Assembly: GCA_964016885.1 (NCBI GenBank)
Contig: OZ024757.1
Span: 5,084,001-5,148,000, forward strand
From: Eledone cirrhosa
Taxonomy: Eukaryota
Direction of reading: 5' to 3'
DNA: 64,000 nt
In this document: positions 2,494 through 42,482 of the stretch, piece after piece
Position numbering within the stretch: position 1 is the stretch's first letter
How the letters are laid out: every line of letters begins with the position of its first letter
The notes under the pieces: model-generated
Database searches by the model: none
What the model was told of the DNA's origin: nothing
The model's input: the letters and a program-made list of their open reading frames with translations, nothing else
Position numbers and translations under genes: made by a program

Positions 2494-2525
<32 letters not shown>

Positions 2526-2533
<8 letters not shown>

Positions 2534-5500
2534 GATCGAGTATCGAAAAATCGGCGCACGAGTTCACGATAAACGAAATTCGATATGAGCGGCAGAGGGC
2601 TCAATAATTCAGATGAATCAGAGCTATAACTATCGTTAAAATACCGTCACATATAGAACAAGTCTACAATCAACCATACGATTTAAAATCGATAAAGGAA
2701 GATTCGGGCCAAACAGATAAAAAATATCAATAAAACAATACGTCAATAATTTAAATGAATGTAAAATCATACCCGGACCCACTAGAAAGGTGTTAAATCT
2801 AGCTTCATGGGTTTCTGTAAATCCTTAGACTGTACTCTATCAGCTCACATATAAATATAAAAGCCTACTAGAGTAAGTGGAACGGAGTTTACGTTATCAA
2901 CGAGTTTTTTCCTGGCGGCAGAGGAGTCAACTAGCGGTGAAAAACGCACATGGCATTAGACAAGGGAGATGACCCCTATATCCGCGAAAACAATTCGAGT
3001 GAATGTGGAAATACACATATCGAATTAGAGTGCTCAATAGACATGTTAAAATAAAACAAAAGCTATTCATCACTCAATAGAATCGACAAAAAATGAGCAA
3101 TAAAATTAACTGGTGGATAGCTATGTCCAGAGCTAAATATATTAGAAAGATCGAGTATCGAAAAATCGGCGCACGAGTTCACGATAAACGAAATTCGATA
3201 TGAGCGGCAGAGGGCTCAATAATTCAGATGAATCAGAGCTATAACTATCGTTAAAATACCGTCACATATAGAACAAGTCTACAATCAACCATACGATTTA
3301 AAATCGATAAAGGAAGATTCGGGCCAAACAGATAAAAAATATCAATAAAACAATACGTCAATAATTTAAATGAATGTAAAATCATACCCGGACCCACTAG
3401 AAAGGTGTTAAATCTAGCTTCATGGGTTTCTGTAAATCCTTAGACTGTACTCTATCAGCTCACATATAAATATAAAAGCCTACTAGAGTAAGTGGAACGG
3501 AGTTTACGTTATCAACGAGTTTTTTCCTGGCGGCAGAGGAGTCAACTAGCGGTGAAAAACGCACATGGCATTAGACAAGGGAGATGACCCCTATATCCGC
3601 GAAAACAATTCGAGTGAATGTGGAAATACACATATCGAATTAGAGTGCTCAATAGACATGTTAAAATAAAACAAAAGCTATTCATCACTCAATAGAATCG
3701 ACAAAAAATGAGCAATAAAATTAACTGGTGGATAGCTATGTCCAGAGCTAAATATATTAGAAAGATCGAGTATCGAAAAATCGGCGCACGAGTTCACGAT
3801 AAACGAAATTCGATATGAGCGGCAGAGGGCTCAATAATTCAGATGAATCAGAGCTATAACTATCGTTAAAATACCGTCACATATAGAACAAGTCTACAAT
3901 CAACCATACGATTTAAAATCGATAAAGGAAGATTCGGGCCAAACAGATAAAAAATATCAATAAAACAATACGTCAATAATTTAAATGAATGTAAAATCAT
4001 ACCCGGACCCACTAGAAAGGTGTTAAATCTAGCTTCATGGGTTTCTGTAAATCCTTAGACTGTACTCTATCAGCTCACATATAAATATAAAAGCCTACTA
4101 GAGTAAGTGGAACGGAGTTTACGTTATCAACGAGTTTTTTCCTGGCGGCAGAGGAGTCAACTAGCGGTGAAAAACGCACATGGCATTAGACAAGGGAGAT
4201 GACCCCTATATCCGCGAAAACAATTCGAGTGAATGTGGAAATACACATATCGAATTAGAGTGCTCAATAGACATGTTAAAATAAAACAAAAGCTATTCAT
4301 CACTCAATAGAATCGACAAAAAATGAGCAATAAAATTAACTGGTGGATAGCTATGTCCAGAGCTAAATATATTAGAAAGATCGAGTATCGAAAAATCGGC
4401 GCACGAGTTCACGATAAACGAAATTCGATATGAGCGGCAGAGGGCTCAATAATTCAGATGAATCAGAGCTATAACTATCGTTAAAATACCGTCACATATA
4501 GAACAAGTCTACAATCAACCATACGATTTAAAATCGATAAAGGAAGATTCGGGCCAAACAGATAAAAAATATCAATAAAACAATACGTCAATAATTTAAA
4601 TGAATGTAAAATCATACCCGGACCCACTAGAAAGGTGTTAAATCTAGCTTCATGGGTTTCTGTAAATCCTTAGACTGTACTCTATCAGCTCACATATAAA
4701 TATAAAAGCCTACTAGAGTAAGTGGAACGGAGTTTACGTTATCAACGAGTTTTTTCCTGGCGGCAGAGGAGTCAACTAGCGGTGAAAAACGCACATGGCA
4801 TTAGACAAGGGAGATGACCCCTATATCCGCGAAAACAATTCGAGTGAATGTGGAAATACACATATCGAATTAGAGTGCTCAATAGACATGTTAAAATAAA
4901 ACAAAAGCTATTCATCACTCAATAGAATCGACAAAAAATGAGCAATAAAATTAACTGGTGGATAGCTATGTCCAGAGCTAAATATATTAGAAAGATCGAG
5001 TATCGAAAAATCGGCGCACGAGTTCACGATAAACGAAATTCGATATGAGCGGCAGAGGGCTCAATAATTCAGATGAATCAGAGCTATAACTATCGTTAAA
5101 ATACCGTCACATATAGAACAAGTCTACAATCAACCATACGATTTAAAATCGATAAAGGAAGATTCGGGCCAAACAGATAAAAAATATCAATAAAACAATA
5201 CGTCAATAATTTAAATGAATGTAAAATCATACCCGGACCCACTAGAAAGGTGTTAAATCTAGCTTCATGGGTTTCTGTAAATCCTTAGACTGTACTCTAT
5301 CAGCTCACATATAAATATAAAAGCCTACTAGAGTAAGTGGAACGGAGTTTACGTTATCAACGAGTTTTTTCCTGGCGGCAGAGGAGTCAACTAGCGGTGA
5401 AAAACGCACATGGCATTAGACAAGGGAGATGACCCCTATATCCGCGAAAACAATTCGAGTGAATGTGGAAATACACATATCGAATTAGAGTGCTCAATAG

Positions 5501-7722
5501 ACATGTTAAAATAAAACAAAAGCTATTCATCACTCAATAGAATCGACAAAAAATGAGCAATAAAATTAACTGGTGGATAGCTATGTCCAGAGCTAAATAT
5601 ATTAGAAAGATCGAGTATCGAAAAATCGGCGCACGAGTTCACGATAAACGAAATTCGATATGAGCGGCAGAGGGCTCAATAATTCAGATGAATCAGAGCT
5701 ATAACTATCGTTAAAATACCGTCACATATAGAACAAGTCTACAATCAACCATACGATTTAAAATCGATAAAGGAAGATTCGGGCCAAACAGATAAAAAAT
5801 ATCAATAAAACAATACGTCAATAATTTAAATGAATGTAAAATCATACCCGGACCCACTAGAAAGGTGTTAAATCTAGCTTCATGGGTTTCTGTAAATCCT
5901 TAGACTGTACTCTATCAGCTCACATATAAATATAAAAGCCTACTAGAGTAAGTGGAACGGAGTTTACGTTATCAACGAGTTTTTTCCTGGCGGCAGAGGA
6001 GTCAACTAGCGGTGAAAAACGCACATGGCATTAGACAAGGGAGATGACCCCTATATCCGCGAAAACAATTCGAGTGAATGTGGAAATACACATATCGAAT
6101 TAGAGTGCTCAATAGACATGTTAAAATAAAACAAAAGCTATTCATCACTCAATAGAATCGACAAAAAATGAGCAATAAAATTAACTGGTGGATAGCTATG
6201 TCCAGAGCTAAATATATTAGAAAGATCGAGTATCGAAAAATCGGCGCACGAGTTCACGATAAACGAAATTCGATATGAGCGGCAGAGGGCTCAATAATTC
6301 AGATGAATCAGAGCTATAACTATCGTTAAAATACCGTCACATATAGAACAAGTCTACAATCAACCATACGATTTAAAATCGATAAAGGAAGATTCGGGCC
6401 AAACAGATAAAAAATATCAATAAAACAATACGTCAATAATTTAAATGAATGTAAAATCATACCCGGACCCACTAGAAAGGTGTTAAATCTAGCTTCATGG
6501 GTTTCTGTAAATCCTTAGACTGTACTCTATCAGCTCACATATAAATATAAAAGCCTACTAGAGTAAGTGGAACGGAGTTTACGTTATCAACGAGTTTTTT
6601 CCTGGCGGCAGAGGAGTCAACTAGCGGTGAAAAACGCACATGGCATTAGACAAGGGAGATGACCCCTATATCCGCGAAAACAATTCGAGTGAATGTGGAA
6701 ATACACATATCGAATTAGAGTGCTCAATAGACATGTTAAAATAAAACAAAAGCTATTCATCACTCAATAGAATCGACAAAAAATGAGCAATAAAATTAAC
6801 TGGTGGATAGCTATGTCCAGAGCTAAATATATTAGAAAGATCGAGTATCGAAAAATCGGCGCACGAGTTCACGATAAACGAAATTCGATATGAGCGGCAG
6901 AGGGCTCAATAATTCAGATGAATCAGAGCTATAACTATCGTTAAAATACCGTCACATATAGAACAAGTTTACAATCAACCATACGATTTAAAATCGATAA
7001 AGGAAGATTCGGGCCAAACAGATAAAAAATATCAATAAAACAATACGTCAATAATTTAAATGAATGTAAAATCATACCCGGACCCACTAGAAAGGTGTTA
7101 AATCTAGCTTCATGGGTTTCTGTAAATCCTTAGACTGTACTCTATCAGCTCACATATAAATATAAAAGCCTACTAGAGTAAGTGGAACGGAGTTTACGTT
7201 ATCAACGAGTTTTTTCCTGGCGGCAGAGGAGTCAACTAGCGGTGAAAAACGCACATGGCATTAGACAAGGGAGATGACCCCTATATCCGCGAAAACAATT
7301 CGAGTGAATGTGGAAATACACATATCGAATTAGAGTGCTCAATAGACATGTTAAAATAAAACAAAAGCTATTCATCACTCAATAGAATCGACAAAAAATG
7401 AGCAATAAAATTAACTGGTGGATAGCTATGTCCAGAGCTAAATATATTAGAAAGATCGAGTATCGAAAAATCGGCGCACGAGTTCACGATAAACGAAATT
7501 CGATATGAGCGGCAGAGGGCTCAATAATTCAGATGAATCAGAGCTATAACTATCGTTAAAATACCGTCACATATAGAACAAGTCTACAATCAACCATACG
7601 ATTTAAAATCGATAAAGGAAGATTCGGGCCAAACAGATAAAAAATATCAATAAAACAATACGTCAATAATTTAAATGAATGTAAAATCATACCCGGACCC
7701 ACTAGAAAGGTGTTAAATCTAG
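2526..7722 (-). repeat. Tandem array of a 615-bp unit (8 full copies plus a partial); retrozyme/Penelope-like concatemer candidate
   Basis: Units start at 2526, 3141, 3756, 4371, 4986, 5601, 6216, 6831 and 7446. Only one substitution was noticed (C>T at 6969). The left end abuts (TA)n. Strand is inferred from the HHR-like motif. Confidence 0.95.
2776..2843 (-). ncRNA. Variant hammerhead-like motif, one per 615-bp unit
   Basis: Minus strand reads CTGATAGA-GTA(c)AGTC taag GATT TAC-A-GAAA-CCCA(tgaag)CTAGA..TCTAG-TGGG-TC. Stem III and the GUC site are clean. The core has two extra A residues and stem I is weak. Confidence 0.5.
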
Positions 7723-8000
7723 TAAACTCCGTTCCACGTAAACTCCGTTCCACTTACTCTAGTAGGCTTTTATATTTATATGTGAGCTGATAGAGTACAG
7801 TCTAAGGATTTACAGAAACCCATGAAGCTAGATTTAACACCTTTCTAGTGGGTCCGGGTATGATTTTACATTCATTTAAATTATTGACGTATTGTTTTAT
7901 TGATATTTTTTATCTGTTTGGCCCGAATCTTCCTTTATCGATTTTAAATCGTATGGTTGATTGTAGACTTGTTCTATATGTGACGGTATTTTAACGATAG

Positions 8001-8001
<1 letters not shown>
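7723..8001 (+). repeat. Inverted partial copy of the 615-bp unit, ending in (TA)n
   Basis: Reverse complement of part of the unit, carrying the HHR-like motif at 7787-7854. The 16-mer gtaaactccgttccac is duplicated at the junction (7722-7753). Confidence 0.95.
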
Positions 8002-8035
<34 letters not shown>

Positions 8036-8259: not shown

Positions 8260-8324
8260 TATTTTATTATACATATTTCAAGGATACCATGTTAAATTAT
8301 GGTATGCTTTCATCAGACAAAATA
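8260..8324 (-). ncRNA. Type I hammerhead ribozyme motif
   Basis: Minus strand reads tattttgt-CTGATGA-aagcataccat/atggtatcctt-GAAA-tatgta-TA-ataaaata. Stem I is 8 bp (one G-A mismatch), stem II is 10/11 bp, and the core is canonical. Confidence 0.85.
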
Positions 8325-9292: not shown

Positions 9293-9337
<45 letters not shown>

Positions 9338-9371
9338 AAAGAATTGAGGTGTAACACACAAGTTATTATAT

Positions 9372-9755
9372 ATTGGTAAACGGAATAGAAAATGCTGACA
9401 AATAATTGTTCACAGTTGAAAAATGGTTTAATTAGGAATAAAAGAGTATTAGTGATTGTATGGGTTAGTATTCAGTTGTGGTTTTAAGTTTTTACCGGTT
9501 GCGCATTTCCAAATGCCCTTCAAAAACAATTCTGAGATAGAGTGTCCGTGTTGTTTGCTCTGATCAGAGCAAACAGCACGGACACTCTATCTCAAAATTA
9601 TTTTTGAAAAGCATTTAGAAATGCGCAACCGGTAAAAACTTAAAAACTTAAAACCACAACTGAATACTAACCCATACAATCACTAATACTCTTTTATTCG
9701 TAATTAAACCATTTTTCAACTGTGAACAATTTGTCAGCATTTTCTATTCCGTTTA

Positions 9756-9760
<5 letters not shown>
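9372..9760. repeat. Spacer-less foldback palindrome (~195-bp arms) between TA tracts
   Basis: Centre gctctga|tcagagc at 9563/9564. The arms differ by a few substitutions, an 8-bp duplication and a 3-bp indel. Confidence 0.95.
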
Positions 9761-13684: not shown

Positions 13685-14535
13685 CCACTGTGTACTAAGT
13701 GTAGCATATTATATCCTTGTTCAGGGCCTTCCTGACATTACTGTGTACTAAGTGTAGCATATTATGTCCTTGTTCAGGGCCTTCCTGACATTACTGTGTA
13801 CTGAGTGTAGCATATTATATCCTTGTTCAGGGCCTTCCTAACATTACTGTCTACTGAGTGTAGATTTGGATATCCTTGTTCAGGGCCTTCCTGACATTAC
13901 TGTGTACTAAGTGTAGATTTGGATATCCTTGTTCAGGGCCTTCCTAACATTACTGTGTACTAAGTGTAGATTTGGATATCCTTGTTAAGGGCCTTCCTAA
14001 CATTACTGTGTACTAAGTGTAGATTTGGATATCCTTGTTCAGGGTCTTCCTGACATTACTGTGTACTAAGTGTAGATTTGGATATCCTTGTTCTGGGCCT
14101 TCCTAACATTACTGTGTACTAAGTGTAGCATATTATATCCTTGTTCAGAGCCTTTCTAACATTACTGTGTACTAAGTGTAGCATTTTATATACTTATTCT
14201 GGGCCTTTCTAACGTTACTGTGTACTGAGTGTAGATTTTAACATCCTTGTTCTTGGCCTTCCTAACACCACTGTGTTGTAAATATAGATGTTGATATCCT
14301 TGTTCAGGGCCTTCCTACCATTACTGTGTACTAAGTGTAGCATTTTATATCCTTGTTCAGGGCCTTTCTAATACCACTGTGTTCTAAGTGTAGATTTTGA
14401 TATCCTTGTTCTGGGCCTTCCTAACATTACTGTGTATTAAGAGTAACTTTCAACATTATCCTTGTTCTGAGCCTTCTTAACACCACTATGTATTAAGTGT
14501 AGCTTTAATATACTTGTTCAGGGCCTTCATAATAC
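13685..14535. repeat. Minisatellite, 53-54 bp unit, ~16 copies
   Basis: Unit cattactgtgtactaagtgtagatttggatatccttgttcagggccttcctaa. Confidence 0.95.
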
Positions 14536-14711
14536 CAGACTAGGTAATGTGTATATTATATTGTTGCAGGGGAACTAAGTATGTCCTTAAGGTCCTGTAA
14601 TGTACCCTAGTTGACCTTCATGGTAGCACCAGCCCTGTATAAAACTGTGATACTTTAAAGTTCAGTAATGTACCAATCTGATGTCTATACTCTAGCTGGT
14701 TGTCTGTCTCG

Positions 14712-15816
14712 CTGTACCCTGGGTGGCCCTATGTCTCCCTGAGGTCTGTACCCCAGGTGGCCCTATGTCTCCCTGAGGTCTGTACCCCAGGTGGCCCTAT
14801 GTCTTCCTGAGGTCTGTACCCTAGGTGGCTCTGTGTCTCTCTGAGGTCTGTACCCCAGGTGGCCCTATGTCTCCCTGAGGTCTGTACCCTAGGTAGCTCT
14901 GTGTCTCTCTAAGATCTGTACCCTAGGTGGCTCTGTGTCTCCCTGAGGTCTGTACCCTAGGTGGCCCTATGTCTCCCTGAGGTCTGTACCCTAGGTGGCT
15001 CTGTGTCTCTCTGAGGTCTGTACCCCAGGTGGCCCTATGTCTCCCTGAGGTCTGTACCCTAGGTGGCTCTGTGTCTCTCTAAGATCTGTACCCTAGGTGG
15101 CTCTGTGTCTCCCTGAGGTCTGTACCCTAGGTGGCCCTATGTCTCCCTGAGGTCTGTACCCTAGGTGGCTCTGTGTCTCTCTGAGGTCTGTACCCCAGGT
15201 GGCCCTATGTCTCCCTGAGGTCTGTACCCTAGGTAGCTCTGTGTCTCTCTAAGATCTGTACCCTAGGTGACAGGGTGTCTCTCTGAGGTCTGTACCCTAG
15301 GTAGCTCTGTGTCTCCCTGAGGTCTGTACCCTAGGTAGCTCTGTGTCTCTCTAAGATCTGTACCCTAGGTGGCCCTATGTCTCCCTGAGGTCTGTACCCT
15401 AGGTGACAGGGTGTCTCTCTGAGGTCTGTACCCTAGGTGGCTCTGTGTCTCTCTGAGGTCTGTACCCTAGGTGACAGGGTGTCTCTCTGAGGTCTGTACC
15501 CTAGGTGGCTCTGTGTCTCTCTGAGGTCTGTACCCTAGGTAGCTCTGTGTCTCTCTAAGATCTGTACCCTAGGTGACAGGGTGTCTCTCTGAGGTCTGTA
15601 CCCTAGGTGGCTCTGTGTCTCTCTGAGGTCTGTACCCTAGGTGGCTCCGTGTCTCTCTAAGGTCTGTACCCTAGGTGGCCCTATGTCTCCCTGAGGTCTG
15701 TACCCTAGGTGGCTCTGTGTCTCTCTGAGGTCTGTACCCTAGGTAGCTCTGTGTCTCTCTAACATCTGTACCCTAGGTGACAGGGTGTCTCTCTGAGGTC
15801 TGTACCCTAGGTAGCT
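14712..15816. repeat. Minisatellite, 34 bp unit, ~32 copies
   Basis: Unit ctgaggtctgtaccctaggtggctctgtgtctct with recurring variants. Confidence 0.95.
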
Positions 15817-15819
15817 GTA

Positions 15820-18800
15820 TATAAGGACTAGAACTCTTTAATTAGAATCAAATAGTAGTATATATGCAATATTTAATAGAGAAATTGCTTCAACAAGACT
15901 AAATTCATTAATATGAGGGGTATTAGTAGTTTATATGCCATATTTAATACATAAATGGCTTCTAAATGCAGAGAACTAATTTATTCGATGGAAATAGTAA
16001 TGTATATCCAATATTTAATACAGAGATGCCTTCTACAAGACTAAAAGTTATTAATATGAGGGGTATTAGTAGTACATATGCCATATTTAATACGCAAATT
16101 GCTTCTAAATGAAGAGATCTCTTTAATTCGATGGAAATATACTGTATATCCAATATTTAATACAGAACTGTCTTCTACAAAGCTAAAACTCATTTATATA
16201 AGGGGTATTAGTAGTGTATATGCCATATTTAATACAGAAATGGGTTCTAAAGGACTAGTACTCTTTAAATTGAATAAAATAGTAGTATATATGCAATATT
16301 TACTACAGAAATGCCTTCTAAAGGACTAAAACTCATTAATATGACGGTATTAGTAGATTATATAACATATTTAATACAGAAATGGCTTTTTAATTCGATG
16401 GAAATAGTAGTGTATATGCAATATTTAATACAGAAATAGCTTCTACAGGACTAAAACTAATTAATATGAGGGTTATTAGTAGTATATGTGCCATATTTAA
16501 TACAGAGATGGCTTCTAAATGGAGGGATCTCATTAATTCGATGGAAATAGTAGTGTATATACAATATTTAATACAGAAATGGCTTCTAAAGGACTAGAAC
16601 GCTTTAATTCGAATCAAATAGTAGTATATATCGTATATTTAATACAGAAACGTCTTCTACAGGATGACAACTAATATATTTGGAGGAAATAGAAGTATAT
16701 ATGTAATATTTAATACAGAAATAGCTTCTGCAGAGCTAGAAACCAGTATTTCGAAGGAAATAGTAGAGTATACACAATATTTAATACAGAAATGGCCTCT
16801 AAATTACTAGGACTCTTTAATTTGATGGAAATAGTAGAGTATATGCAATATTTAATAAATAAATGGCTTCTAAAGCAGTAGAACTCTTTAATTTAAAGGC
16901 TATTAGTAATATATATGCCATATTTAATACAGAAATGGCTTATAAAGCACTATAACTCTTTAATTTTAAGGAAATAGTACAGTATATGCAATATTCAATG
17001 CAGAAATCACTGTCAAAGGACTAGAACTAATATATTTGTAGTAAATAGTAGCATATATGTAATATTTAATACAGAAATTGCTTCTGAAGCACTAGAACTC
17101 TTTAATTTGAAGGATATTAATAGATTTTATGCAATATTTAATATGTAAATAGATTCCTCAGGGCTAGAACTCATTAATTCGAAAGAAATAGTAGTGTATA
17201 TGCAATATTTAATACAGAAATAACTTCTACAGGGCTGAAATTCATTAATATGAGGGGCATTAATACATTATATGCTATATTTAATACAGAAATTGCCTCT
17301 AAAAGACTAGAAACTTTCAATTTATAGGAAATAGTAGATTATATGCCACATGTAATAAATAAATGGTCTCTAAAGGAGTAAAGCTCATTAATTCGAAGGA
17401 AATAGTAGTATATATGCCATACGTAATAAAGAAATGGCTTCTACAGGACTAAAACTCATTGATTTGAAGGATATTAGTAGATTATATGCAACATTTAATA
17501 TAGAAATGGCTTCTAAAGGGCAAAAGCTCATTAATTCTAAGGAAATAGTACATTATATGCAATATTTAATATAGAAATGGCTTGTAAAGGACTAGAAATC
17601 ATTAACTTGAAGGATATTTGTAGATTATATGCCATATTTAATACAGAAATATTTAAGAAAGGAATGAATTCTAAGGGAGTAAAACTAATATAATTGTAGG
17701 AAATGCTAGTATATATGCCATATTTAATAAAGAAATGGCTTCTAAAGCAGTAGAACTTTTTAATTTGAAGGGTATTAGTAGATTATATGCCATATTTAAT
17801 ATGGAAATGGCTTCTAAAGGACTAAATCTCATTAATTCAAGGGAAATAATAATATATGTGCAATATTCAATACAGAAATTGCTTCTAAAGAATAGAACTC
17901 TTCGATTCAAAGGAAATAGTACAGTATATGCAATATTTAATAGGGAAACAACTTCAACAGAGCTAGAACCCATAAATTTGAAGGAAAAAGTAGAGTATAC
18001 ACAATATTTAATGCAGAAATGGCTTCTAAATGACTAGAACTTTTAATTCAAAGGAAATAGTACATTATATGCCATATTTAATATGGAAATGGCTTCTTAA
18101 GAATAAGAACTCTTTAATTTGTAGTAAATAGTAGTATGTATGCAATATTTAATACAGAAACGGCTTCTACAAGTCTAAAAGTCATTAATTTGAAGAGTAT
18201 TAGTAGATTATATGCCATATTTAATAGATAAATAGCTTCTACAGTGCTACAACTCATTAATTTGAACAAAATTGTAGTGTATATGCAATATTTAATACAG
18301 AAATGGCTTTTAGAGGGCTGAAACTCATTAACTTGAAGGGTATTATTAGATTATATGCTACATTTAATGCAGAAATGGCCTTCAGATGACTACAATGCCT
18401 CAATTCGAAAGAAATAGTAGAGTATATGCTATATTTAATAAGAAATGGCTTCTAAAAGAGTAAAATTAATATAATTTGAGGAAATAATAGTATATACGCC
18501 ATATTTAATACAGAAATGTCTTCTAAAGGACTAGAATGCTTTAATTTAAAGGGTATTAGTAGATTATATTCTATACTCAATACGGAAATGGCTTCTTAAG
18601 GACTAAAGCTCATTAATTTGAGGGAAATAGTAGTGTATGTGCAATATTTAATACAGAAATGGCTTCTAAAGGAATAGAACTCTTCAAGGAAATAGTATTT
18701 TATATGCAACATTTAATATAGAAATGGTTTCTAAAGGGCTAAATCTCATTAATTTGAAGGAAATAGTACATTATATGCAATATTTAATAGAGAAATGGCT

Positions 18801-19810
18801 TCTACAGGACGAAAACTCATTAATTCAAAGGATATTAGTAGATTATATGCCATATTTAATACAGAAATGGCTTCTAAAAGACTAGAACTCCACAATTCAA
18901 AGGAAATAGTAGTATATATGCCATATTTAATACGGAAATGGCTTCTAAAAGACTAGAACTCTTCAATTCAAAGGAAATAGTATTATATATGCCATATTTA
19001 ATACAGAAATGGCTGTCAAGAGACTAGAACGAATATATTTGTATATGTGCAATACTTAATTCAGAAAAGTCTAGAAAAGGACTAGAAATTTTAATTCAAA
19101 GGAAATAGTACATTATATGCCATATTTTATATGGAAATGGCTTCTTGAGGACAAGAACTTTTTTATTTGTTGTAAATAGTAGTATGAAAGCAATATTTAA
19201 TACAGAAATGGCTTCTACAGGACTAAAACTTTTTAATTTGAAGAGTATTAATAGATTATATGCAATATTTAATTCATAAATAGCTTTACAGTGCTACAAC
19301 TCATTAATTTGAACGAAATAGTAGTGTCTATGCAATATTTAATACAGAAATGGCCTCTAAATTACTAGAACTTTTCAATTCGAAGGAAATAGTAGATTAT
19401 ATGTCACATGTAATAAGGAAATTGCCTCTAAAGGAGTAAAGCTCATAAATTTGAGGGAAATAGTAGTGTATGTGCATTATTTACTTCGAATTAATGAGTT
19501 CTCGCCCTGTGGAATCTATTTACGTATTAAATATTGCATATAATCTATTAATATCCTTCAAATTAAAGAGTTCTAGTGCTTCAGAAGACATTACATATAT
19601 ACTACTATTTCGTGCAAATATATTAGTTCTAGTCCTTTGACAGCCATTTCTGTATTATATATTGCATATACTGTAATATTTCCTTAAAATTAAAGAGTTC
19701 TAGTGCTTTAGAAGCCATTTCTGTATTAAATATTGTGTATACTCTACTATTTCCTTTGAATAACTGGTTTCTAAGTCTTTGGAAGCTATTTCCGTATTAA
19801 ATATTACATA
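15820..19810. repeat. Diverged AT-rich satellite, ~71 bp unit, with the last ~325 bp inverted
   Basis: tatgcaatatttaatacagaaatggcttcta recurs about every 71 bp, and the orientation flips near 19486. Confidence 0.9.
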
Positions 19811-19811
19811 C

Positions 19812-22318
19812 AGTAAGGTGTTCTGGAAGTATGTTCACGCAAAGTAGAGGCCTCACTCTCCAGTTGGTCCTCTTCGCAATCCCCACACAAGCCAGGTTAC
19901 TGACGACCCCAAGGAATGCGCAGAGCTCATTGCTGAATGCTATGCAGGCATTTTCACTATTGAAGACCAGAGTGTACCATCTCCACCACCTATGACTCTG
20001 GACTCTATTACAACCATGGAATTTACACCTGCAATGCTGCGACGTCACCTGAAAAATAAACGCAACCATGCCTCTTCTGGTCTTGATGGTGTTACGTACC
20101 TGCTTCTTAAACGTGGTGGGTACTTCCTTCTACACCAGTTATCACGCTTCTTCCAATTCTGCCTGAACAACAGTGCTACTCCAGAACAGTGGAAAACTGC
20201 CAGTGTCATTCCTCTGTTCAAAAAGGGTGACCGCACATCACCTGTGAACTATCGTCCAGCCAGTCTTACCAGTTGCATCGCCAAACTGATGAAATCCTGT
20301 GTCAGAGAAACACTTTGGAACTTCTGGAGCACTCACAGTCTTATCCGGCCCTCGCAATTTGGATTTATCCCCAACTCCAGCTGCTGTGATCAACTTATAG
20401 AGTTTCTTGAGGACATCACCCGGATCACTGATGGAGGCTCATGGGTGGATGTTGTTTACCTTGACTTTGCGACGGCCTTCAATTCTGAGCCACACAAGAG
20501 GCTTATGGCAAAACTCTCTGCAATGGGTGTGAAGGATGATCTTTTTAACTGGTTGAAGTCCTTCATTCTCGGTCGAAGAGAGGTAGTCACGGTTCTAGGA
20601 CAGCATTCCTCACCATATGAGATGTCATCTGGTGTACCACAGGGATCTGTTCTTGGCCCCTTTTTGTTTGTGGCATATATTAATGACATAGATGCCAACT
20701 TAAGGAATGCCACAGTACTAAAGTATGCAGACGACATCAAGCTGTACCTTGAGATAAAAAGGACAGATCCTGAACACTATAGATCTTGTTTGCAGTCTGA
20801 CCTGGACACAATGCAACAATGGATCTCAGACTGGCAACTCAAGCTAGCTGTGAAAAAGTGCACCACCATGCATTTTGGGAGTAAAAACCCAGCGTCCACA
20901 TACTCCCTCCACAGCACTAATATCAAGAAGTCTTCTTGTGAACGTGACCTGGGCATTACGGTCAGCAGCGATTTGCGTTGGACGAGGCACGTCTCTAAAA
21001 TTGTCAAGAAGGCCGATGGTGTCTTAGCATCACTCAGCAAGACCTTTGTCAGCTGCTCTCCAGATATCTATTTAAGGCTGTATACAGCTATGGTGCAACC
21101 ACACTTAGAATTTGCATCACCAGTCTGGAACCCCTATTTTGCTCAGGACATTGACCGCCTGGAAACTGTTGAGAGACGTGCAACCAAGCGAATACCCTCC
21201 ATCAGGCATCTACCATACTCTGAGCGCCTTGCTTCCGTGGGCATGGATTCATTGAAGCTCCGACGCCTGGCAACTGACTTGGTAAACACCCACAAAATTG
21301 TTAACCATATTGTCAACAACAACCCTGAGTACCTTTTTGATTTCCATGTGTCTAACACACGTGGACATGCCCACAAAGTAAGAAAATAGCACAGTTCCCA
21401 TGACTTTCGGAAACATTTTTTCACGCTCAGAGTTGCTGAAGCATGGAACAAACTACCTGCATCAGTTGTTAGCTGTAGAGACACTGCATGCTTTAAAACC
21501 TCCATGGAACAAACTACCTGCATCAGTTGTTAGCTGTCGAGACACTGCATCCTTTAAAACCTCCATGGAACAAACTACCTGCATCAGTTGTTAGCTGTGG
21601 AGACACTGCATCCTTTAAAACCTCCATGGAACAAACTACCTGCATCAGTTGTTAGCTGTCGAGACACTGCATCCTTTAAAACCTCCATGGAACAAACTAC
21701 CTGCATCAGTTGTTAGCTGTGGAGACACTGCATCCTTTAAAACCTCCATGGAACAAACTACCTGCATCAGTTGTTAGCTGTGGAGACACTGCATCCTTTA
21801 AAACCTCCATGGAACAAACTACCTGCATCAGTTGTTAGCTGTGGAGACACTGCATCCTTTAAAACCTCCATGGAACAAACTACCTGCATCAGTTGTTAGT
21901 TGTGGAGACACTGCATCCTTTAAAACCTCCATGGAACAAACTACCTGCATCAGTTGTTAGCTGTCGAGACACTGCATCCTTTAAAACCTCCATGGAACAA
22001 ACTACCTGCATCAGTTGTTAGCTGTGGAGACACTGCATCCTTTAAAACCTCCATGGAACAAACTACCTGCATCACTTGTTAGCTGTGGAGACACTGCATC
22101 CTTTAAAACCTCCATGGAACAAACTACCTGCATCAGTTGTGAGCTGTCGAGACACTGCATCTTTTAAAGCCTCCATGCTTCCCGAGATCCGCCAACACTA
22201 CAGCTAACACATACACACATGTACTTCCCTGACATTTGTGTATTATTCTATGTACTATATTGACGAGTTGTGGTGCAGCTGAGCACTTTACACAATAATT
22301 TCATTATTATTATTATTA
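19812..22318 (+). mobile_element. 5'-truncated CR1/L2-group LINE (RT domain, ORF 19992..21389)
   Basis: NYRPASLTS, YLDF..AF, GVPQGSVLGP, YADD and ERDLG motifs. The 3' UTR ends in (ATT)n and the element is homologous to 37337-41660. Confidence 0.93.
21442..22177 (+). repeat. 61-bp x 12 tandem repeat amplified from the LINE ORF2 C-terminus
   Basis: catggaacaaactacctgcatcag... recurs at 21442+61n. The sister LINE has a single copy (37667-37731). Confidence 0.95.
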
Positions 22319-22414
22319 ATATGTCACATCCATTCCACCCTGTAAATATGAAACTGTTGCTCACATCAATTTATATGTATCTATATTATTGTTCAGTTGA
22401 ATAGGAGGGTAATT

Positions 22415-24855
22415 ATACATATATATATGTGTGTGTAGTGTATATATATAGACTGTATAGTGTATATATACATATATATATATGTGTAGTGTATATAGAC
22501 AGTATAGTGTATATATACAAATATATATGTGTGTAGTGTATATATATATAGACTGTATAGTGTATATATACATATATATATATATGTGTGTAGTGTATAT
22601 ATATAGACTGTATAGTGTATATATACATATATATATGTGTAGTGTATATAGACAGTATAGTGTATATATACAAATATATATGTGTGTAGTGTATATATAT
22701 ATATAGACTGTATAGTGTATATATACATATATATATATGTGTAGTGTATATAGACAGTATAGTGTATATATACATATATATATGTGTAGTGTATATATAT
22801 ATAGACTGTATAGTGTATATATACATATATATGTGTGTAGTGTATATATATATATAGACTGTATAGTGTATATATACATATATATATATGTGTGTAGTGT
22901 ATATATATAGACTGTATAGTGTATATATACATATATATATATATATGTAGTGTATATATATATAGACTGTATAGTGCATAAAGACATATATATATATATG
23001 TGTAGTGTATATATATATATATATGGACTGTATAGTGTATATATACATATATATATATGTAGTGTATATATATAGACTGTATAGTGCATATATACATATA
23101 TATATATATGTAGTGTATATATATATATAGACCGTATAGTGCATATATACATATATATATATATATATATATGTGTGTAGTGTATATATATATAGACTGT
23201 ATAGTGTATATATATATATATATGTGTGTAGTGTATATATATATATATAGACTGTATAGTGCATATATACATATATATATGTAGTGTATATATATAGACT
23301 GTATAGTGCATATATACGTATATATATATATATGTAGGGTATATATATAGACTGTATAGTGTATATATACATATATATATATATATATGTAGTGTATATA
23401 TATAGACTGTATAGTGCATATATACATATATATATGTGTGTAGTGTATATATATATAGACTGTATAGTGTATATATACATATATATATATGTGTGTAGTG
23501 TATATATATAGACTGTATAGTGTATATATACATATATATATATATATGTAGTGTATATATATATAGACTGTATAGTGCATATATACATATATATATATAT
23601 GTGTAGTGTATATATATATATATAGAGACTGTATAGTGTATATATACATATATATATATATGTAGTGTATATATATAGACTGTATAGTGCATATATACAT
23701 ATATATATGTGTGTAGTGTATATATATAGACTGTATAGTGTATATATACATATATATATATATGTAGTGTATATATATATAGACTGTATAGTGCATATAT
23801 ACATATATATATATATGTGTAGTGTATATATATATATATGGATTGTATAGTGTATATATACATATATATATATATATGTAGTGTATATATATATAGACCG
23901 TATAGTGTATATATACATATATATATATGTGTAGTGTATATATATATATAGACTGTTTAGTGTATATATACATATATATATATATATGTAGTGTATATAT
24001 ATATATATAGACTGTATAGTGCATATATACATATATATATATATGTAGTGTATATATATATATAGACTGTATAGTGCATATATACATATATATATATATA
24101 TATGTGTGTAGTGTATATATATATAGACTGTATAGTGTATATATATATATATATATGTGTGTAGTGTATATATATATATATATATAGACTGTATAGTGCA
24201 TATATACATATATATATGTAGTGTATATATATATAGACTGTATAGTGCATATATACATATATATATATATATATATACATATGTAGTGTATATATATAGA
24301 CTGTATAGTGTGTATATATATATATATATATATAGACTGTATAGTGCATATATACATATATATATATATATGTAGTGTATATATATAGACTGTATAGTGC
24401 ATATATACATATATATATGTGTGTAGTGTATATATATATATAGACTGTATAGTGTATATATACATATATATATATATATGTAGTATATATATATATATAT
24501 GTAGTGTATATATATATAGACTGTATAGTGTATATATACATATATATATATGTCTAGTGTATATATATATATAGACTGTATAGTGTATATATACATATAT
24601 ATATATATGTAGTGTATATATATATATAGACTGTATAGTGCATATATACATATATATATATGTAGTGTATATATATATATAGACTGTATAGTGCATATAT
24701 ACATATATATATATATATATGTGTGTAGTGTATATATATATAGACTGTATAGTGTATATATATATATATGTGTGTAGTGTATATATATATATAGACTGTA
24801 TAGTGCATATATACATATATATATGTAGTGTATATATATATAGACTGTATAGTGC

Positions 24856-24935
<80 letters not shown>

Positions 24936-25500
24936 TATATATATAGACTGTATAGTGTGTATATATATATATATATATATAGACTGTATAGTGCATATAT
25001 ACATATATATATATATATGTAGTGTATATATATAGACTGTATAGTGCATATATACATATATATATATATATGTAGTGTAGTGTATATATATATATAGACT
25101 GTATAGTGTATATATACATATATATATATATATGTAGTATATATATATATATGTAGTGTATATATATAGAGACTGTATAGTGTATATATACATATATATA
25201 TATGTGTAGTGTATATATATATATATAGACTGTATAGTGCATATATACATACATATAAATATATATGTGTAGTGTATATATATATAGACTGTATAGTGCA
25301 TATATACATACATACATATATATGTAGTGTATATATATATAAACTGTATAGTGCATATATGGATACATATATATATATATATGTAGTGTATATATATAGA
25401 CTGTATAGTGTATATATACATATATATATATATGTATATGTAGTGTATTTATATATAGACTGTATAGTGCATATATACATATATATATATATGTATATAT
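22415..25500. repeat. Compound (TA)n-based satellite: GACTGTATAGTG / CA / GTAGTG modules separated by variable (TA)n
   Basis: Direct observation. It explains the spurious Y/I-rich ORFs. Confidence 0.95.
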
Positions 25501-26024
25501 GAATAATATTGGTGATAGGAAGGGCATTCAGCTATTGAAAACCTGCTAGAAAACGGGTTGGGCGGACCTTTCTGCTGTGTAAAGGACATGACAATCACTT
25601 TAGTATTGGTGACACAACCAAATACACCCAGTAGTTGGTGTGACCATATGTAACTGAAAGGAGGACCCCAACCCCACCTTGGTCTTTGAAGACAACCTGT
25701 CTAACCCTTGCTAGCAGGGAAACTGGACATTAAATGATGATGAGCTGTGACATCACTGAGGTCAAGCTGTTTCAGCCATTCCTTTGGACAGTATTCTATA
25801 TGGTCTATATATATTGGACAATATGAAATATCATGTATATAGAAGTTTTGACAACATTATATATACATATGTACACACACACTGACAAACATGTATATTT
25901 ATATACAATGTTCGGCTGAAGAGGTCATAGGCTGACCAAGTTACTCTCATGGAATGAGACAATGTATACACACAAATATATGCTTATATATATGTATACA
26001 AATACATATATATTTTATAGTGAA

Positions 26025-28074
26025 TTATTATAGATTACTAAATGAGGAGAATGCATGGGAAGAAGAGACCCTACCTCAAGTAGACTCTATAGAGGGGCCA
26101 ACAGTACAAGTCAGCAGCAGCGTAGTAAGTAAGGCAATCAAAAATATGAAGATGGGGAAGGCAACCGGTCCATCGGGTATAGCTGCCGAGATGCTGAAGG
26201 CATCTGGGTCTGTAGGTCACACTATAACCACACGTATTGTTAACCAGGTAATACTAGAAGGTGTCATACCAAAAGATTGGTGCAGTAGCATCATTGTCAA
26301 CTGCTACAAAGGTAAAGGTGATGCACTAGATCTAGGAAACTATAGAGGTATAAAGCTGATGGACCAGGTCATGAAAGTAACAGAAAGAGTTATATCATAG
26401 TTGATTAGGGACCGGGTGAAACTAGATGAGATGCAATTTGGGTTTGTACTAGGAAGAGACACCACTGATGCCCTTTTCCTTGTCAGGCAGTTACAGGAAA
26501 AGTACCTAGCTAAAAATAAGCCACTCTACCTGGCATTCGTCGATTTCGAGAAAGCTTTTGACAGAGTTCCACGTGCTGTAATCTGGTGGGCTCTTAGAAA
26601 ACTAGGAGTAGATGAATGGCTTGTGAAAGCCTTACAAGCCATGTATAGGGGAGCAGTCAGCAAAGTTATGATTAAAAATGAGTATAGCGAGGAATTTAGC
26701 GTACAGGTTGGTTTCCACCAGGGCTCTGTTCTTAGCCCTCTCCTGTTCATCATAGTCCTGCAGGCAATAACGGAGGAGTTTAAGACTGGATGCCCATGGG
26801 AACTCCTGTATGCTGATGACCTCGCACTTATAGCTGAATCTATGGTAGAACTAGAGAAGAAATTCCAAACTTGGAAGCAGGGACTAGAAAGAAAGGGTCA
26901 CAAAGTCAACATGACAAAGACTAAGGTCCTTGTAAGTAGACGAGAAAACAGGACCCAGATCCCCTCAGGGAAATGGCCTTGCTCAGTATGTAGGAAAGGT
27001 GTAGGTAGGAACTCCATTCTCTGCCCCAAATGCAAACAATGGGTACACAAGAGATGTAGCGGGATCTCAGGAAGCTTAATTAAGAATGTAGGCTTCACAT
27101 ACAGTAACTGTGCTGGGACAGCAAGCAGCAAACAGCCACAGGAAACAAGTACCACCAATCTCTGGGAGGGCCCTGTAGAAACAGTAGACAGCTTCTGCTA
27201 CCTAGGTGACCGAATTAGCAGCGGAGGTGGGTGTTCAGAAAGTACAATAACTAGGGTAAGAACGGGATGGAAGAAGTTCAGGGAACTACTGCCACTGCTA
27301 GCTGCAAAAGGCTTCTCCCTCAAAATGAAAGGCAGACTGTATGATGCGTGTATCCGAACAGCGATGTTGCATGGTAGTGAGACCTGGGTGCTGAAGGCAG
27401 AAGACTTACATAGATTAGAAAGTAACGAAGCCTGCATGCTCTGATGGATGTGTAATAGTAATATACACGAACGATAAAGCATAAATGAATTGAGAGAGAG
27501 ACTGAGCATAAGAGGAATCAAATGCTGTGTGCAGGAGAGGCGGTTGCGTTGGTATGGACATGTGATGCGTATGAAGGATGACAGCTGCATAAAAAGGTGC
27601 AGAGCACTAGAAGTCAATGGAAACTGCGGGGTGGGGAGACCCAAGAAGACCTGGGATGAGGTGATAAAAGCCGACCTTACCCAATTACACCTCTCAAAGG
27701 TGATGACACACGACCGTGACCTCTGGCGTCACGCAGTAATACAGAGTACCCGATCTCCCATGGGTACATGCTGAAGCATATAGACAATATGCCCCCACAC
27801 CCTCCCACTGCAAGGTGGTCGTGGAGGTGTCACAGCAAAAAAGCACCCAGCCCACACTGTAAAGTGGACGTGTAGGCGCCACGGAAAAAGCACCCAGCAC
27901 TCACTGTAAATGAGATTGGTGTTAGGAAGGGCATCCAGCTGTAGAAATGAAGCCAAAATCAGTTCCTGTATGAGCAAGGCATGGTCAGCCGACCAGACAC
28001 TGCCCACAACAGGACAACCCATCTAACCCAAGCTAGCATGGAAGAACGGACGTAAAACGGTGATGATGATGATG
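26025..28074 (+). mobile_element. 5'-truncated RTE (BovB-like) LINE with in-frame stops and AGTGAA TSD
   Basis: NYRGIKL, FVDFEKAFD, HQGSVLSP, LLYADD, a PHD-like insert (CSVC..C..C..WVHKRC) and a (TGA)n tail. AGTGAA lies at 26019-26024 and 28075-28080, and the paralogous empty site is near 32267. Confidence 0.93.
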
Positions 28075-28239
28075 AGTGAAGTCATACAGCATATCGCAAT
28101 ATCATGTTTTCAATTCTCAGCTTTGGAGGTACATTGTGTCCTGAAGCAAGACACATCATTCCACATGTCTCTAATCCCCACAGCTGGAAAATACAAGTAT
28201 CAGCTTTAGTTGGAGGTTTAGCATGAGTTGGATCATTCC

Positions 28240-28490
28240 CTGCCTCCAACCTTTTCACTTCGGCCTCAAACCCAGGCTTTACTACCTGCAATAGAGAGAA
28301 GAGGAAGATAGTTAAATACCGGGGCCTGAAAAACCACTTCCTCTTTGTCCCCACACTGCTGATTTCCTTCTCAAAATTAGAAAGACAGCAGCCCCCTTGA
28401 GGAAGGAGTCCCATGAGGTGGGGTGTATGTTGTAGTGGGTGTCTCTGGCTATTCTCTGTGGTAACACCTTTGTCATTTTGTCTGTAGTGT
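28240..28490 (+). mobile_element. CRE-type RLE C-terminal remnant (duplicated at 32430-32670)
   Basis: KRKIVKYRGL..FLFVP and WVSLAILCGNTF, similar to 12650-12950. Confidence 0.65.
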
Positions 28491-28770
28491 GGGGCTGAAT
28501 CACAGCTCAGACTGAAATATGAAGTCTGTCCCTCTCCCATTATTTTCATTGCGTGATTTGTTTTTTTTTTCCATTACTTAAATATTTTATTACCTTTAAT
28601 GTGTTTTGTTTTAATATGAACAGTTATGTAAAATAATGTTATTTATGCAAATCGGAATAAAGACGACCAATCTTGCCTCAAGTGGGACAATTCCTGTCTA
28701 AACCCATGCTAGCGTGGAAGATAGATATTAAACGATGATGATGATGATATATATATATTCAAGAGAGTAG

Positions 28771-33541: not shown

Positions 33542-34618
33542 TTATACATTGTCAATTATGATTTTATTTGATGTATCATATCTACATGTATATATATACT
33601 TGCGTATAATATCAATATACACACTACACATGCTAGCAGAAAACCACCCAAAGGTAGCATGTGTAGTGTGTATATTGATATTACACGCAGGTATATATAT
33701 ACATGTATCATATATACCTGCGTATAATATCGATATACACACTACACATGCTACCTTCGGGTGGTTTTCTGCTAGTTCATATAACGGAAGTTGTTTCTGA
33801 ATGTATTAAATTATGTGGGGGACATTTAAGCCATGACACCGGTGTCAACTGGACGGTGAAATATTACCATTTATATCTGCTCCATTGTTACAACTTAAAC
33901 CTCATCTAATTTCATCTTTTATGGTGATTATTTCATATTAAGGTGGACGTTAATGTTTGTAAATAACATAAGGTGACTTATTTACCTTATAGTTGTTGTT
34001 TTAGCACCTGTATTATTAAATATTGAAGGGGTTGTTCAACATTTTACAGGACAGGAAAATATTATTTTAATCAGAAATCATTGAACATTTAGTTTTTACT
34101 AACTTTTCTTGACTTTATATTTGGTCTTGACAACTAAAGTACGTATTATTTCGTTTTCCACCACAACACAAACATTGTGAACTTTTCTATCTGAAGTGAA
34201 ATATATTGATTTATTACAACACCTACACACATATTTCCACACACACATCTATTTCTCTCTCTCATACCTGCACACTGTATGTCTCTATATATATATATAT
34301 GTATATATATTAACCTTCATCTTTTGAAATTATGGATATTAATTCTCTTGTCACCTGAACTGTCCTCAATAACAAGAACCTTAACTATAGAAGTCTTATT
34401 CGACTGTTTTATGAGCTGAGGATTTTATTGATCTTCTCACCTTAACAAAAATAAAAGATACACACACACACACACACACACACAGACATATATATATTAG
34501 CACTTGCTTTTTCTTCTTCCAAGATCAGTCTTACGCTTTCATACATCTTATTACTTTACCAACTGAATGCTACATTTCTTAATATATGAGTGGAAATGGT
34601 GAGATTCCTTTATGAAAT

Positions 34619-35146
34619 ATGTCTGAATATAGCTGTGAGATTTGCAGGAAAACTTTCTCTTCAAAACTGAAACTATCCTCACACGAGAAAATACACAGAG
34701 AAAAACCCTTTCACTGTGAAATATGTCGGAAATCTTTTACTAATAATTCTGCTCTTGTCATCCACATACGGAGTCACACTGGTGAAAATCCCTTCCACTG
34801 TGAAATATGTGGGAAATCTTTTACTAATAATTCTGCTCTTGTCGTCCACATACGGAGTCACACTGGTGAAAAACCCTTCCACTGTGAAATATGTGGGAAA
34901 TCCTTTTATCGTAGTTCTTATCTTTTACAACACAAAAGAACACACACTGGTGAAAGACCCTTCCATTGTGAAATATGTGGTAAATCTTTTTCTCAGAGTT
35001 CTCAACTTGTACGTCACAAAAGAACACACAGTGGTGAAAGACCTTATTCATGTAAAATATGAGGTAAATCTTTCACTGAGAATTCATCACTGGTTGTTCA
35101 CCTACGTAGTCAACACTTGCGGTAAACCCCATCACTGTGAAATATG
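34619..35146 (+). pseudogene. C2H2 zinc-finger array: 5 intact fingers (ORF 34619..35062), then a finger broken by TGA and a frameshift
   Basis: CEICGKSF..L..H.R.HTGEKP repeats. Homology continues past the stop as CKI*GKSFTENSSLVVHLRS. It could be a truncated live gene. Confidence 0.8.
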
Positions 35147-35317
35147 ATAGACACAAATATATAGACACACTTTGGAAGGCAGAATATAAAATATAAAACA
35201 TAGATCAGATGTCTCAGGATGTCCAGCTGGAGATTAGTGATCTCAGGAATGCCATGGCAGATCGTGACATCTAAAAAAGAAGAGTAGAATTGTTCTGGCC
35301 AATCCACCTGACCTAAT

Positions 35318-41660: not shown

Positions 41661-42482
41661 CCGTAGAAAAACACAGAATGTAAACAATATAGGTTTAGTG
41701 CACTTGATTACGATAGAAATAAAATGTCTGTTTTTTTTGTTTTGTTTTTTTTTTGTGTATTTTGTTTCCGTTTTCCTAAATGTTGTGTGTGTACAGAAGA
41801 GTCTGTGCATGTAAACAAATAAATATGCTGCGTAAGTTAAATGAAACGTACTGTAGAAGGCAACAGTTTATTAACAGCGAAATAACGTTTTTTTTTGGTT
41901 TTTTTTTCCGCTGATACTGCTTCTTTATAATAAACTTTCAATAATATTTTTTTTTTCAAATTATTAACTTTCAGCTGCTACTATATATATATATATATAA
42001 TTAAAAGGTGTATGTGGGTTAGAAGCGAAGTCAATGTTAAGAAATATTTTACCAATGTAAATTGGTAAACTTGGCCGGTTTTCTCCCACGAAATAGTGTG
42101 GTTTCTTTTCACGTGTGTGTATATGCATATGGTATATATCTGTATATAAATCTGTGTGTATATTGTTGTTTATATGTTTTGTGGAGTACTTACTGCGATC
42201 CTTAAGGGATGTAGTGATTTGTTTTGTTTTTTTTCCTTTTTTCCACGTCCCTGTCCACACGTGGTTTGTTGGGGGAAAATCAAGTCAAATTCTATATACT
42301 TCGTTAAGATAATTCTATCTTGAAACTGGTACTAGTTGTCAGGGAACAGTCAAAGTAATTGTAATAATGAATATTGTAATCCATCTGACATGTGTTTAAA
42401 GGGCAGTTTTTGGTGAAAATATTATATTTTGTTTGGTCAAGACGTGGTCAAGCAACCTTCCTTGTCGCCATTTTGGCCGGCT

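Follow-up and report, generated by a model that had tools for sequence, protein, structure and literature searches.

The window analysed here is a 64,000-nucleotide (nt) stretch of the Eledone cirrhosa genome (GenBank assembly GCA_964016885.1, contig OZ024757.1, positions 5,084,001 to 5,148,000 of the forward strand), which carries an array of 615-bp units flanked on both sides by (TA)n. This array represents a single insertion from a non-coding family whose members share a fixed start in (TA)n, while their far ends fall at random within the unit. Its main arm comprises eight full units plus 281 nt, interrupted by a single substitution throughout, and stops abruptly at unit position 281, where it meets a 266-bp piece in inverted orientation across a 16-nt duplication. 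A preliminary description, made from the letters of the window, had reported about 8.4 near-invariant copies, (TA)n at both ends, an abrupt end in mid-unit and an inverted terminal piece, and it was accurate in all of these. The unit itself is AT-rich, and its longest stop-free frames are shorter than 80 codons. The features of the array, in window coordinates, are as follows.

2499-2526, no strand: target tract, (TA)n, on the fixed side; its final bases overlap the ATATAT that opens the unit; the same junction lies at 742 places in the genome (control 0).
2522-7722, plus strand: main arm, 8.46 head-to-tail copies with a period of 615 bp; the plus strand would be complementary DNA (cDNA) growing from 2522 and the minus strand the RNA sense, a polarity taken from array ends, strand bias and sites that differ in several units of one array (mosaic sites).
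2596-2624, minus strand: subterminal hairpin, GCUCU-stem-AUNGAGCNCU, recurring with the 615-bp period at unit positions 75-103; common to the 3' ends of Hydra-clade Penelope-like elements and likely a binding signal for reverse transcriptase.
2705-2843, minus strand: conserved structured core (unit positions 184-322, present in each unit), delimited by subfamily comparison and covariation; not a canonical hammerhead.
2705-2843, minus strand, parts of the core: CUGAUAGA at 2836-2843; GAAA; a helix ACCC/GGGU enclosing an inner 5-bp helix (2771-2817); a C; and a helix CGGGU/RCCCG with its 3' arm at 2705-2709.
3029-3063, minus strand: the GCUCU...GAGCACU motif again, in degenerate form, towards the 5' part of the unit.
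6969, plus strand: the sole main-arm substitution, C>T, at position 143 of unit 8.
7722-7753, no strand: head-to-head joint, where the 16-nt tandem duplication belongs to the inverted arm.
7736-8001, minus strand: inverted arm (unit positions 108-373), apparently begun from the opposite (TA)n flank at a second start site that recurs in the family and lies 5 nt from the subterminal hairpin; the same geometry is seen in an autonomous Hydra-type copy at locus L267.
8001-8028, no strand: (TA)n tract at the far end.

Across the 3.0-Gb genome the unit returned 538 candidates, and all 37 that were scored proved to be arrays or partial arrays at ∼99-100% identity (L-numbers denote loci fetched from the same assembly). 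The exact junction of (TA)n with the unit start was found at 742 places and the exact internal unit-unit junction 1,422 times, against 0 in the control for either. There are thus at least 742 scattered insertions, and the array is neither a chance occurrence nor peculiar to its locus; uniqueness of the unit, which the preliminary description had named as fatal to its own reading, is ruled out by these candidates and junctions. That description had also expected dispersed arrays with permuted endpoints in (TA)n. The dispersal is real, but the permutation is confined to one side: in 36 of 37 arrays the start lies at unit position 1-5 within (TA)n and the opposite end is free. Far-end positions were consistent with a uniform distribution over the unit (Kolmogorov-Smirnov p 0.64 for 106 ends, omitting the gap-ended L094 and L334 and also L107), and 48 of 70 far ends adjoined (TA)n, a count that omits seven loci whose far end fell outside the fetched stretch.

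One young haplotype group accounts for 99 insertions. Among 40 of these, sampled in list order, 14 held less than one unit, nine held 1-3 units, nine held 3-10 units and eight held at least 10, the group as a whole running 5.5 units per stop; the longest arrays measured reached 26.6 and 22.4 units. Older relatives with units of 565-627 bp share the fixed end and fall into subfamilies B (3,592 candidates), C (1,873 candidates) and D (644 matches), of which B and C are ∼70% identical; mean column identity across the 26 rows of the subfamily alignment was 56%. Sampled copies of these older subfamilies hold one to two units. The tail-to-head junction was also present in contigs of five of seven public sequencing runs, one or more of which may derive from the source sample. 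Run X1, whose kind was guessed, gave one matching contig of 158 nt at depth 2.2, which says nothing on expression either way. A 645-base record from run X3, of unrecorded type, contained the whole unit as a wrap-around contig (depth 12.8, four variants of a known haplotype); collapsed tandem DNA looks alike, so this is not evidence of a circle.

Variation within and between arrays is informative about how they were written. The 31 arrays with at least three full units carry 17 array-wide haplotypes, with a mean of 7.6 differences per unit between arrays. Changes limited to one unit are rare, amounting to 63 in 438 units of 54 arrays (2.4 × 10−4 per base, later mutation and assembly error included), which falls within the 1.75-2.8 × 10−4 errors per base given for LINE reverse transcriptases on circular RNA in vitro in PMC11331410. 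On the plus strand these single-unit changes include 14 A>G against 0 T>C (p 0.0017) and 26 wobble-type transitions against five (p 0.002). Mutation after insertion should be strand-symmetric, so their likely origin is the copying of the minus strand. Unit-unit junctions were identical in 494 of 501 cases, and five of the other seven represent one older variant.

Mosaic sites were found in eight of the 54 arrays (L095, L106, L112, L114, L313, L375, L376 and L381), often late in the array and with mixed outcomes. In the array covered by L112, L276 and L368, position 368 is normal in the first 19 units and altered in six of the last eight passes, and the array ends at 371. Position 309 of L095 is altered in units 5, 9, 10, 12 and 13, once with an adjacent change, and this array ends at 308. 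In L381, which ends at 267, position 273 is altered in units 2-4, while position 210 of L375 was never correctly copied and shows three outcomes in four passes. Three of the eight mosaic arrays (L095, L112/L368 and L381) therefore stop within 6 nt of their own site (binomial p ∼5 × 10−4). In L376, unit positions 204 and 352 stand out: poly-A stuttering is confined to passes 4 and 5, and only in passes 2 and 3 does position 352 carry G, an allele known from other haplotypes but here without their other variants.

We infer that each mosaic site may reflect one damaged template base, misread over successive passes and finally blocking the enzyme. Array-wide haplotypes, rare strand-biased single-unit changes and repeated miscopying and stops at the same site together argue that one template molecule was read repeatedly, whereas a spread of variants at the DNA level is disfavoured because it predicts neither the mixed outcomes nor the stop. 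The preliminary description had proposed a single recent insertion in which one unit-length template was copied over and over, the minus strand serving as template; this is supported by the haplotypes, the mosaic sites and the strand-biased errors.

The inverted arm points to a second initiation event. At 14 places in the genome (TA)n is joined to unit position 108-112, and at eight of them, the window included, an opposite-strand arm lies head to head inside the fetched flank; four show none there, and the remaining two were not judged (L357, which belongs to another subfamily, and L362, which gave no alignment). The second arm of L350 is itself a concatemer of 2.3 units. Where there are variants to compare, the arms have them mostly in common, with 44 shared against six arm-only entries in L349. 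The arm in the window would represent a second cDNA start beside the subterminal hairpin. Inverted, tail-less 5' pieces have been described for Penelope-like elements (PMC8557442), and a Penelope-like enzyme in vitro cuts AT-rich DNA, extends both target strands and starts inside the RNA at two sites, with the hammerhead dispensable for insertion (PMC11167929). Internal initiation of this kind would make a circle, which has no 3' end, usable as a template with a fixed start.

The subterminal hairpin suggests which class of enzyme was involved. In most terminal copies of the family it lies on the minus strand, separated from the (TA)n end by 63-82 nt, and it folds better on that strand, with G-U pairs, than on the plus strand (−8.0 vs. 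−4.3 kcal/mol). Two 10-mers from the hairpin gave four matches in the supplement of PMC8557442, three of them at the ends of Hydra consensus sequences. In other families of the same genome the hairpin lies 37-46 nt before (TA)n, and the combination of hairpin plus (TA)n gave 4,900 forward-strand matches against 64 in the control, the reverse counts being inflated through multiple counting. One such hairpin-ended family (L267-L272 and L207-L236; 3,453 candidates) has a canonical hammerhead core upstream of the hairpin, a 3' untranslated region of ∼1.3 kb, a (TA)n end and a 556-amino-acid frame with reverse transcriptase and GIY-YIG features. By eye, this frame contains the CxCx5C linker stated for the Hydra clade (PMC8557442) and resembles a published octopus Hydra-clade sequence, in keeping with a cephalopod-type host; the placing of L269 in that clade consists of motifs compared in this way plus the reverse transcriptase and GIY-YIG architecture; Pfam and PDB searches of the frame gave no reverse transcriptase match. 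The inverted 5' piece of L267 begins 3-4 nt before the hairpin, compared with 5 nt in the window.

The 615-bp family thus displays the fixed 3' end, variable 5' truncation, tandem and partial-tandem insertions, inverted tail-less piece and (TA)n target by which Penelope-like insertions are recognised, the Hydra and Naiad clades being those that prefer (TA)n (PMC8557442). A second Hydra-type family, ending in (ATT)n (L177-L206), is very abundant and was rejected as partner, as 30 of its loci showed no 3' hairpin and no sequence is shared; its endonuclease query returned 56,499 candidates, related families included, and its reverse transcriptase region is 42% identical to that of the hairpin-ended family. 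For Naiad, four short words from the unit gave no relevant match in the available supplement of PMC8557442.

The preliminary description had also seen one type I hammerhead-like motif per unit and had placed the array among the non-long-terminal-repeat (non-LTR) retrozymes, and neither assignment held. Neither strand of the unit contains CUGANGA, Rfam recognised no ribozyme in it at the gathering score nor at E values up to 10, and a core-plus-helix-II scan gave 0 matches in seven units of subfamilies A, B and D while detecting its positive control, a hammerhead in L165. The minus strand carries CUGAUAGA...GAAAC...GUC, which corresponds to the right half of the hammerhead core only, and a type I fold is impossible because the helix strand after GUC pairs with a downstream arm. 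A type II arrangement was likewise rejected, no CUGANGA following the downstream helix in any subfamily. A true non-LTR retrozyme does exist in this genome: L165 (1392-2200; contig C1, ∼22,611,790-22,612,600) is a separate tandem element of under two 470-bp units, with (TA)n on both sides, a canonical hammerhead per unit (Rfam HH9, E 2 × 10−4; circular fold z −17) and a partial GCUCU...AUAGAG copy of the hairpin. Within the window, two canonical hammerhead cores with helix II were seen in related short repeat fragments, at 8276-8316 on the minus strand, 275 bp from the array, and at 61929-61971 on the plus strand.

What the unit does contain is a structure conserved across subfamilies: GAAA, the helix ACCC/GGGU, an inner 5-bp helix, a single C, and the helix CGGGU/RCCCG with its downstream arm. 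The word upstream of it is variable between subfamilies, in the form C-N-G-A-Y-R-G. The core words were partly selected by the search pattern (5,710 genome matches vs. 4 in the control), yet they also predominate among D copies retrieved through the 3' hairpin alone. Compared with shuffles, the minus strand folds with z −2.9 as a linear and −3.1 as a circular molecule, the plus strand with −2.1 and −1.4. Pairing held in 95.7% of cells across 18 rows, a value reached by 0 of 500 shuffles; part of the two-sided change in this test is a one-column register shift of the A and C rows, and in the true register three of the five inner pairs change on both sides between subfamilies. A single distant copy, L237, has ACUC/GAGU and CAGGU/ACCUG, so that both outer helices are changed on both sides with GAAAC and GUC kept. 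RNAalifold on the 26-row full-length alignment, whose rows are partial and out of register, gave a weak consensus of −4.15 kcal/mol.

Several other readings considered for these sequences were not supported. A kissing loop was considered that would join the inner loop to the upstream AGG segment, but in 21 representatives the matched pairs did no better than permuted (p 0.65) or letter-shuffled (p 0.78) ones. Back-splicing at AG|GU was rejected by eye, in that a donor-like GURRGN word follows the core but no conserved AG precedes it. No protein coding was found, and the likeness of one frame to a Penelope C-terminal motif is not kept across subfamilies. Hepatitis delta virus-like, hairpin, twister and pistol ribozymes had no Rfam match and no consistent fit by eye to their consensus cores, no descriptor search having been made. 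For a SINE with Pol III boxes and a head derived from tRNA, 5S or 7SL RNA, Rfam gave no tRNA, 5S or signal recognition particle match in the unit, ARAGORN not having been run. The best guess is that the core would serve as a processing or protein-binding module; that it self-cleaves is on the unlikely side, although well worth considering.

Taken together, these observations make it very probable, as far as genomic sequence can tell, that the family is mobilised by a Penelope-like element and that each array was written from one template. The copying enzyme was likely that of a Hydra-clade Penelope-like element, a reverse transcriptase with a GIY-YIG endonuclease, which would have made repeated rounds of one unit-length template; on balance we favour a covalent RNA circle as that template. 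After transcription of the minus strand, the RNA would be cleaved into unit-length pieces and closed into circles, for which the conserved GAAAC...GUC structure is a possible site. The protein would then bind the GCUCU hairpin, nick a (TA)n tract and start cDNA inside the RNA, ∼70 nt 3' of the hairpin. Strand-displacing synthesis may round the circle from less than once to ∼27 times until it halts, either randomly or where a template base is damaged. In a smaller share of insertions, a second cDNA would be primed by the opposite target strand immediately 5' of the hairpin, and head-to-head joining of the arms would give the arrangement seen in the window. Old arrays would probably shrink to one or two units via recombination.

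A template other than an RNA circle has to be weighed against this. The same enzyme might instead copy a multimer, or a linear RNA made terminally redundant by ∼105 nt beyond one unit, and jump back to the 3' part in each round. No ribozyme or ligase would then be needed, and provided that each jump returns to the molecule already in use, the haplotypes and mosaic sites would be explained as well. Ends ∼105 nt into a second unit are seen in several old copies of B and C, contigs of runs X4 and X6 end at window position 2628, and L049 and L052 share 600C>T in their third unit, which fits copying of a linear multimer. Yet only four of 106 far ends lie at 103-113, despite 5.5 units per stop and arrays of up to 26.6 units; given these few ends and the 494 of 501 identical junctions, the jumps would need ∼99% success and would have to leave no scar. 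We consider a linear template unlikely, though a serious contender. A DNA circle with a fixed origin, either of the Helitron type or excised from an array, is improbable. Rolling-circle DNA transposons also show one fixed and one free end with concatemers, and the mosaic changes resemble bypass of abasic sites. Non-autonomous Helitrons, on the other hand, are marked by a 5'-TC start, a conserved 3' hairpin plus CTRR end and insertion between A and T; here there is no TC start, neither the CTAA unit end (lost in subfamily B) nor the hairpin is kept across subfamilies, and Helitron membership was rejected. The subterminal hairpin is instead common to an element that encodes a reverse transcriptase and folds better on the minus strand, and head-to-head arms from two start sites fit Penelope-like insertions.

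Growth of short insertions of one or two units by later unequal crossover or gene conversion, as in satellites, has been proposed for retrozyme arrays (10.64898/2026.07.22.740005), would yield array-wide variants and could spread one variant over several units. It is nonetheless very improbable for this family, in which the long arrays are young (eight of the 40 sampled with at least 10 units) and the older subfamilies sampled are short, 63 changes are confined to one unit, and the older four-unit array L106 keeps eight non-fixed changes without homogenisation; nor does it predict mixed outcomes at one site, strand bias or ends at an array's own mosaic site. That the copy numbers and mosaic sites are artefacts of assembly or polishing is hardly credible. 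Near-identical tandem units are hard to assemble and some arrays abut gaps (L094 and L334), but every array has its own haplotype, flanks and end phase, the tail-to-head junction recurs in the public contigs, and such errors would lack strand bias relative to the element.

Several points weigh against repeated copying of a single RNA circle by a Hydra-clade enzyme. Circularisation has no canonical ribozyme to explain it, the circle being deduced from genomic sequence, and only two of 106 far ends lie at the GUC site, after which, at window position 2776, a self-cleaving core would be expected to cut. Far ends also bunch at 227-263, an AU-rich stretch, with 19 of 106 where ∼6 are expected. The 6-nt window for stops at mosaic sites was picked after inspection of the data, and five of the eight mosaic arrays stop elsewhere. 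Besides the 600C>T change common to L049 and L052, 160A>G recurs in different units of two arrays, so that error hot spots exist too, and several mosaic changes, in which a base facing a template purine is replaced by A or a single base is lost there, resemble depurination, which is commoner in DNA. All variant calls come from one assembly without reads. With respect to the enzyme, no sequence beyond the ∼25-nt hairpin is alignable between the unit and Hydra-type elements, and Hydra-type copies are ∼4-8% apart from each other whereas the youngest arrays are identical. Together with the Pfam and PDB negatives, this makes the hairpin-ended family a relative of the partner rather than the proven partner.

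Other repeats lie around the array. A 42-bp fragment between two (TA)n tracts to its left (2457-2498) is probably a piece of another (TA)n-associated repeat, and similar sequence flanks a B-subfamily copy in L083. A near-palindrome of 424 bp (9334-9757; self reverse-complement ratio 0.84), with (TA)n tracts on either side, is likely a head-to-head insertion of another family, and by eye it matches the 5' part of a hairpin-ended element in L245. Further away are a minisatellite cluster with periods of 53, 34, 71, 61 and 55 bp (13687-25500), C2H2 zinc-finger repeats with an 84-bp period that appear frameshifted (34616-35147, minus strand), and a 14.8-kb array of 748 copies of a 20-bp unit with extreme G/C skew of ∼0.87 (42482-57292). 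Fragments of LINE-type reverse transcriptase frames and one GIY-YIG fragment occur at 73-847 and 37637-40341 on the minus strand and at 19848-21389, 25936-30752 and 59187-59771 on the plus strand.

Among known systems, the metazoan non-LTR retrozymes come closest in form. They are defined by a type I hammerhead per unit and produce circular RNAs (PMC7229834; PMC7761336), and they are proposed to move as circular RNA via Penelope-like proteins (PMC7229834; 10.64898/2026.07.22.740005). Like them, the 615-bp family consists of dispersed, non-coding, AT-rich tandem units of a few hundred bp, from dimers to long multimers, with one strand structured. A 2026 preprint derives retrozymes from Penelope-like termini, favours later expansion by unequal crossover and gives units of 51-972 bp (10.64898/2026.07.22.740005), so that 615 nt is not large for the class, contrary to what the preliminary description had supposed; the family fits the retrozyme pattern of dispersed non-coding tandem units of ∼50-970 bp. 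Unlike retrozymes, neither the 615-bp unit nor six other subfamily units contain a type I hammerhead, and the fixed start, second start, target preference and single-template signature mapped in this family are not reported for retrozymes in the available portions of PMC7229834 and the preprint.

Hydra-clade Penelope-like elements share the (TA)n targeting, fixed 3' end, 5' truncation, inverted 5' piece and GCUCU...GAGCACU hairpin (PMC8557442), but the 615-bp family has no open reading frame or canonical hammerhead, forms exact multimers of up to 27 units and has its hairpin 63-82 rather than 37-46 nt from the end. Head-to-tail multimers are also formed by non-autonomous Chlamys elements such as MRC1, which belong to a green alga, another clade and another target repeat, and for which no circular template or conserved internal structure is described in the available text (PMC8557442). 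The Anolis Poseidon element PAc resembles the family in vitro in its AT-rich target, two internal start sites, extension of both strands and dispensable hammerhead; PAc differs in being autonomous and linear, with start sites a short tail apart, compared with ∼108 nt on opposite target strands here (PMC11167929). Roll-Seq concatemers, which are rolling-circle cDNA made in vitro, have template changes in all repeats and reverse transcriptase errors in one, at ∼1-3 × 10−4 per base (PMC11331410), and the 615-bp family shows the same pattern in chromosomal insertions. The part of an octopus repeat annotation available to us lists active Penelope-like and unknown families and does not describe such arrays (PMC13282606). 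A search of the literature, with Repbase, Dfam and most subscription papers outside it, found no account of this family or of mosaic-site evidence from a genome.

The element appears to work like a retrozyme or a non-autonomous Penelope-like element while lacking the hammerhead by which retrozymes are defined, and the genomic evidence for rolling-circle copying is unusually direct. This bears on two questions open in the literature, namely whether retrozyme-like arrays arise by rolling-circle reverse transcription or by later DNA expansion, and how tandem and inverted Penelope-like insertions originate. Hundreds of very young events make the start site, the opposite-strand second start, the error spectrum per pass and the stops at miscopied sites readable from sequence. 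The hairpin common to Hydra-clade elements is a candidate cis signal and, with a minimal 615-nt substrate, could serve an in vitro system and possibly open a route to site-targeted insertion of long concatemers. More speculatively, and we think it doubtful as a whole, the family could be an old line of circular RNAs, encoded in the genome and active to this day, in which a new self-processing structure (GAAAC...GUC with three covarying helices) took the place of the hammerhead. Its single rolling-circle runs of up to 16 kb would be written into chromosomes by a Hydra-clade reverse transcriptase, and each array would then document one RNA molecule pass by pass, down to the damage at which the enzyme stopped. 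Should the core cleave itself, it would count either as a new ribozyme or as a very remote variant of the hammerhead, and surveys based on the hammerhead would miss a whole class of elements.

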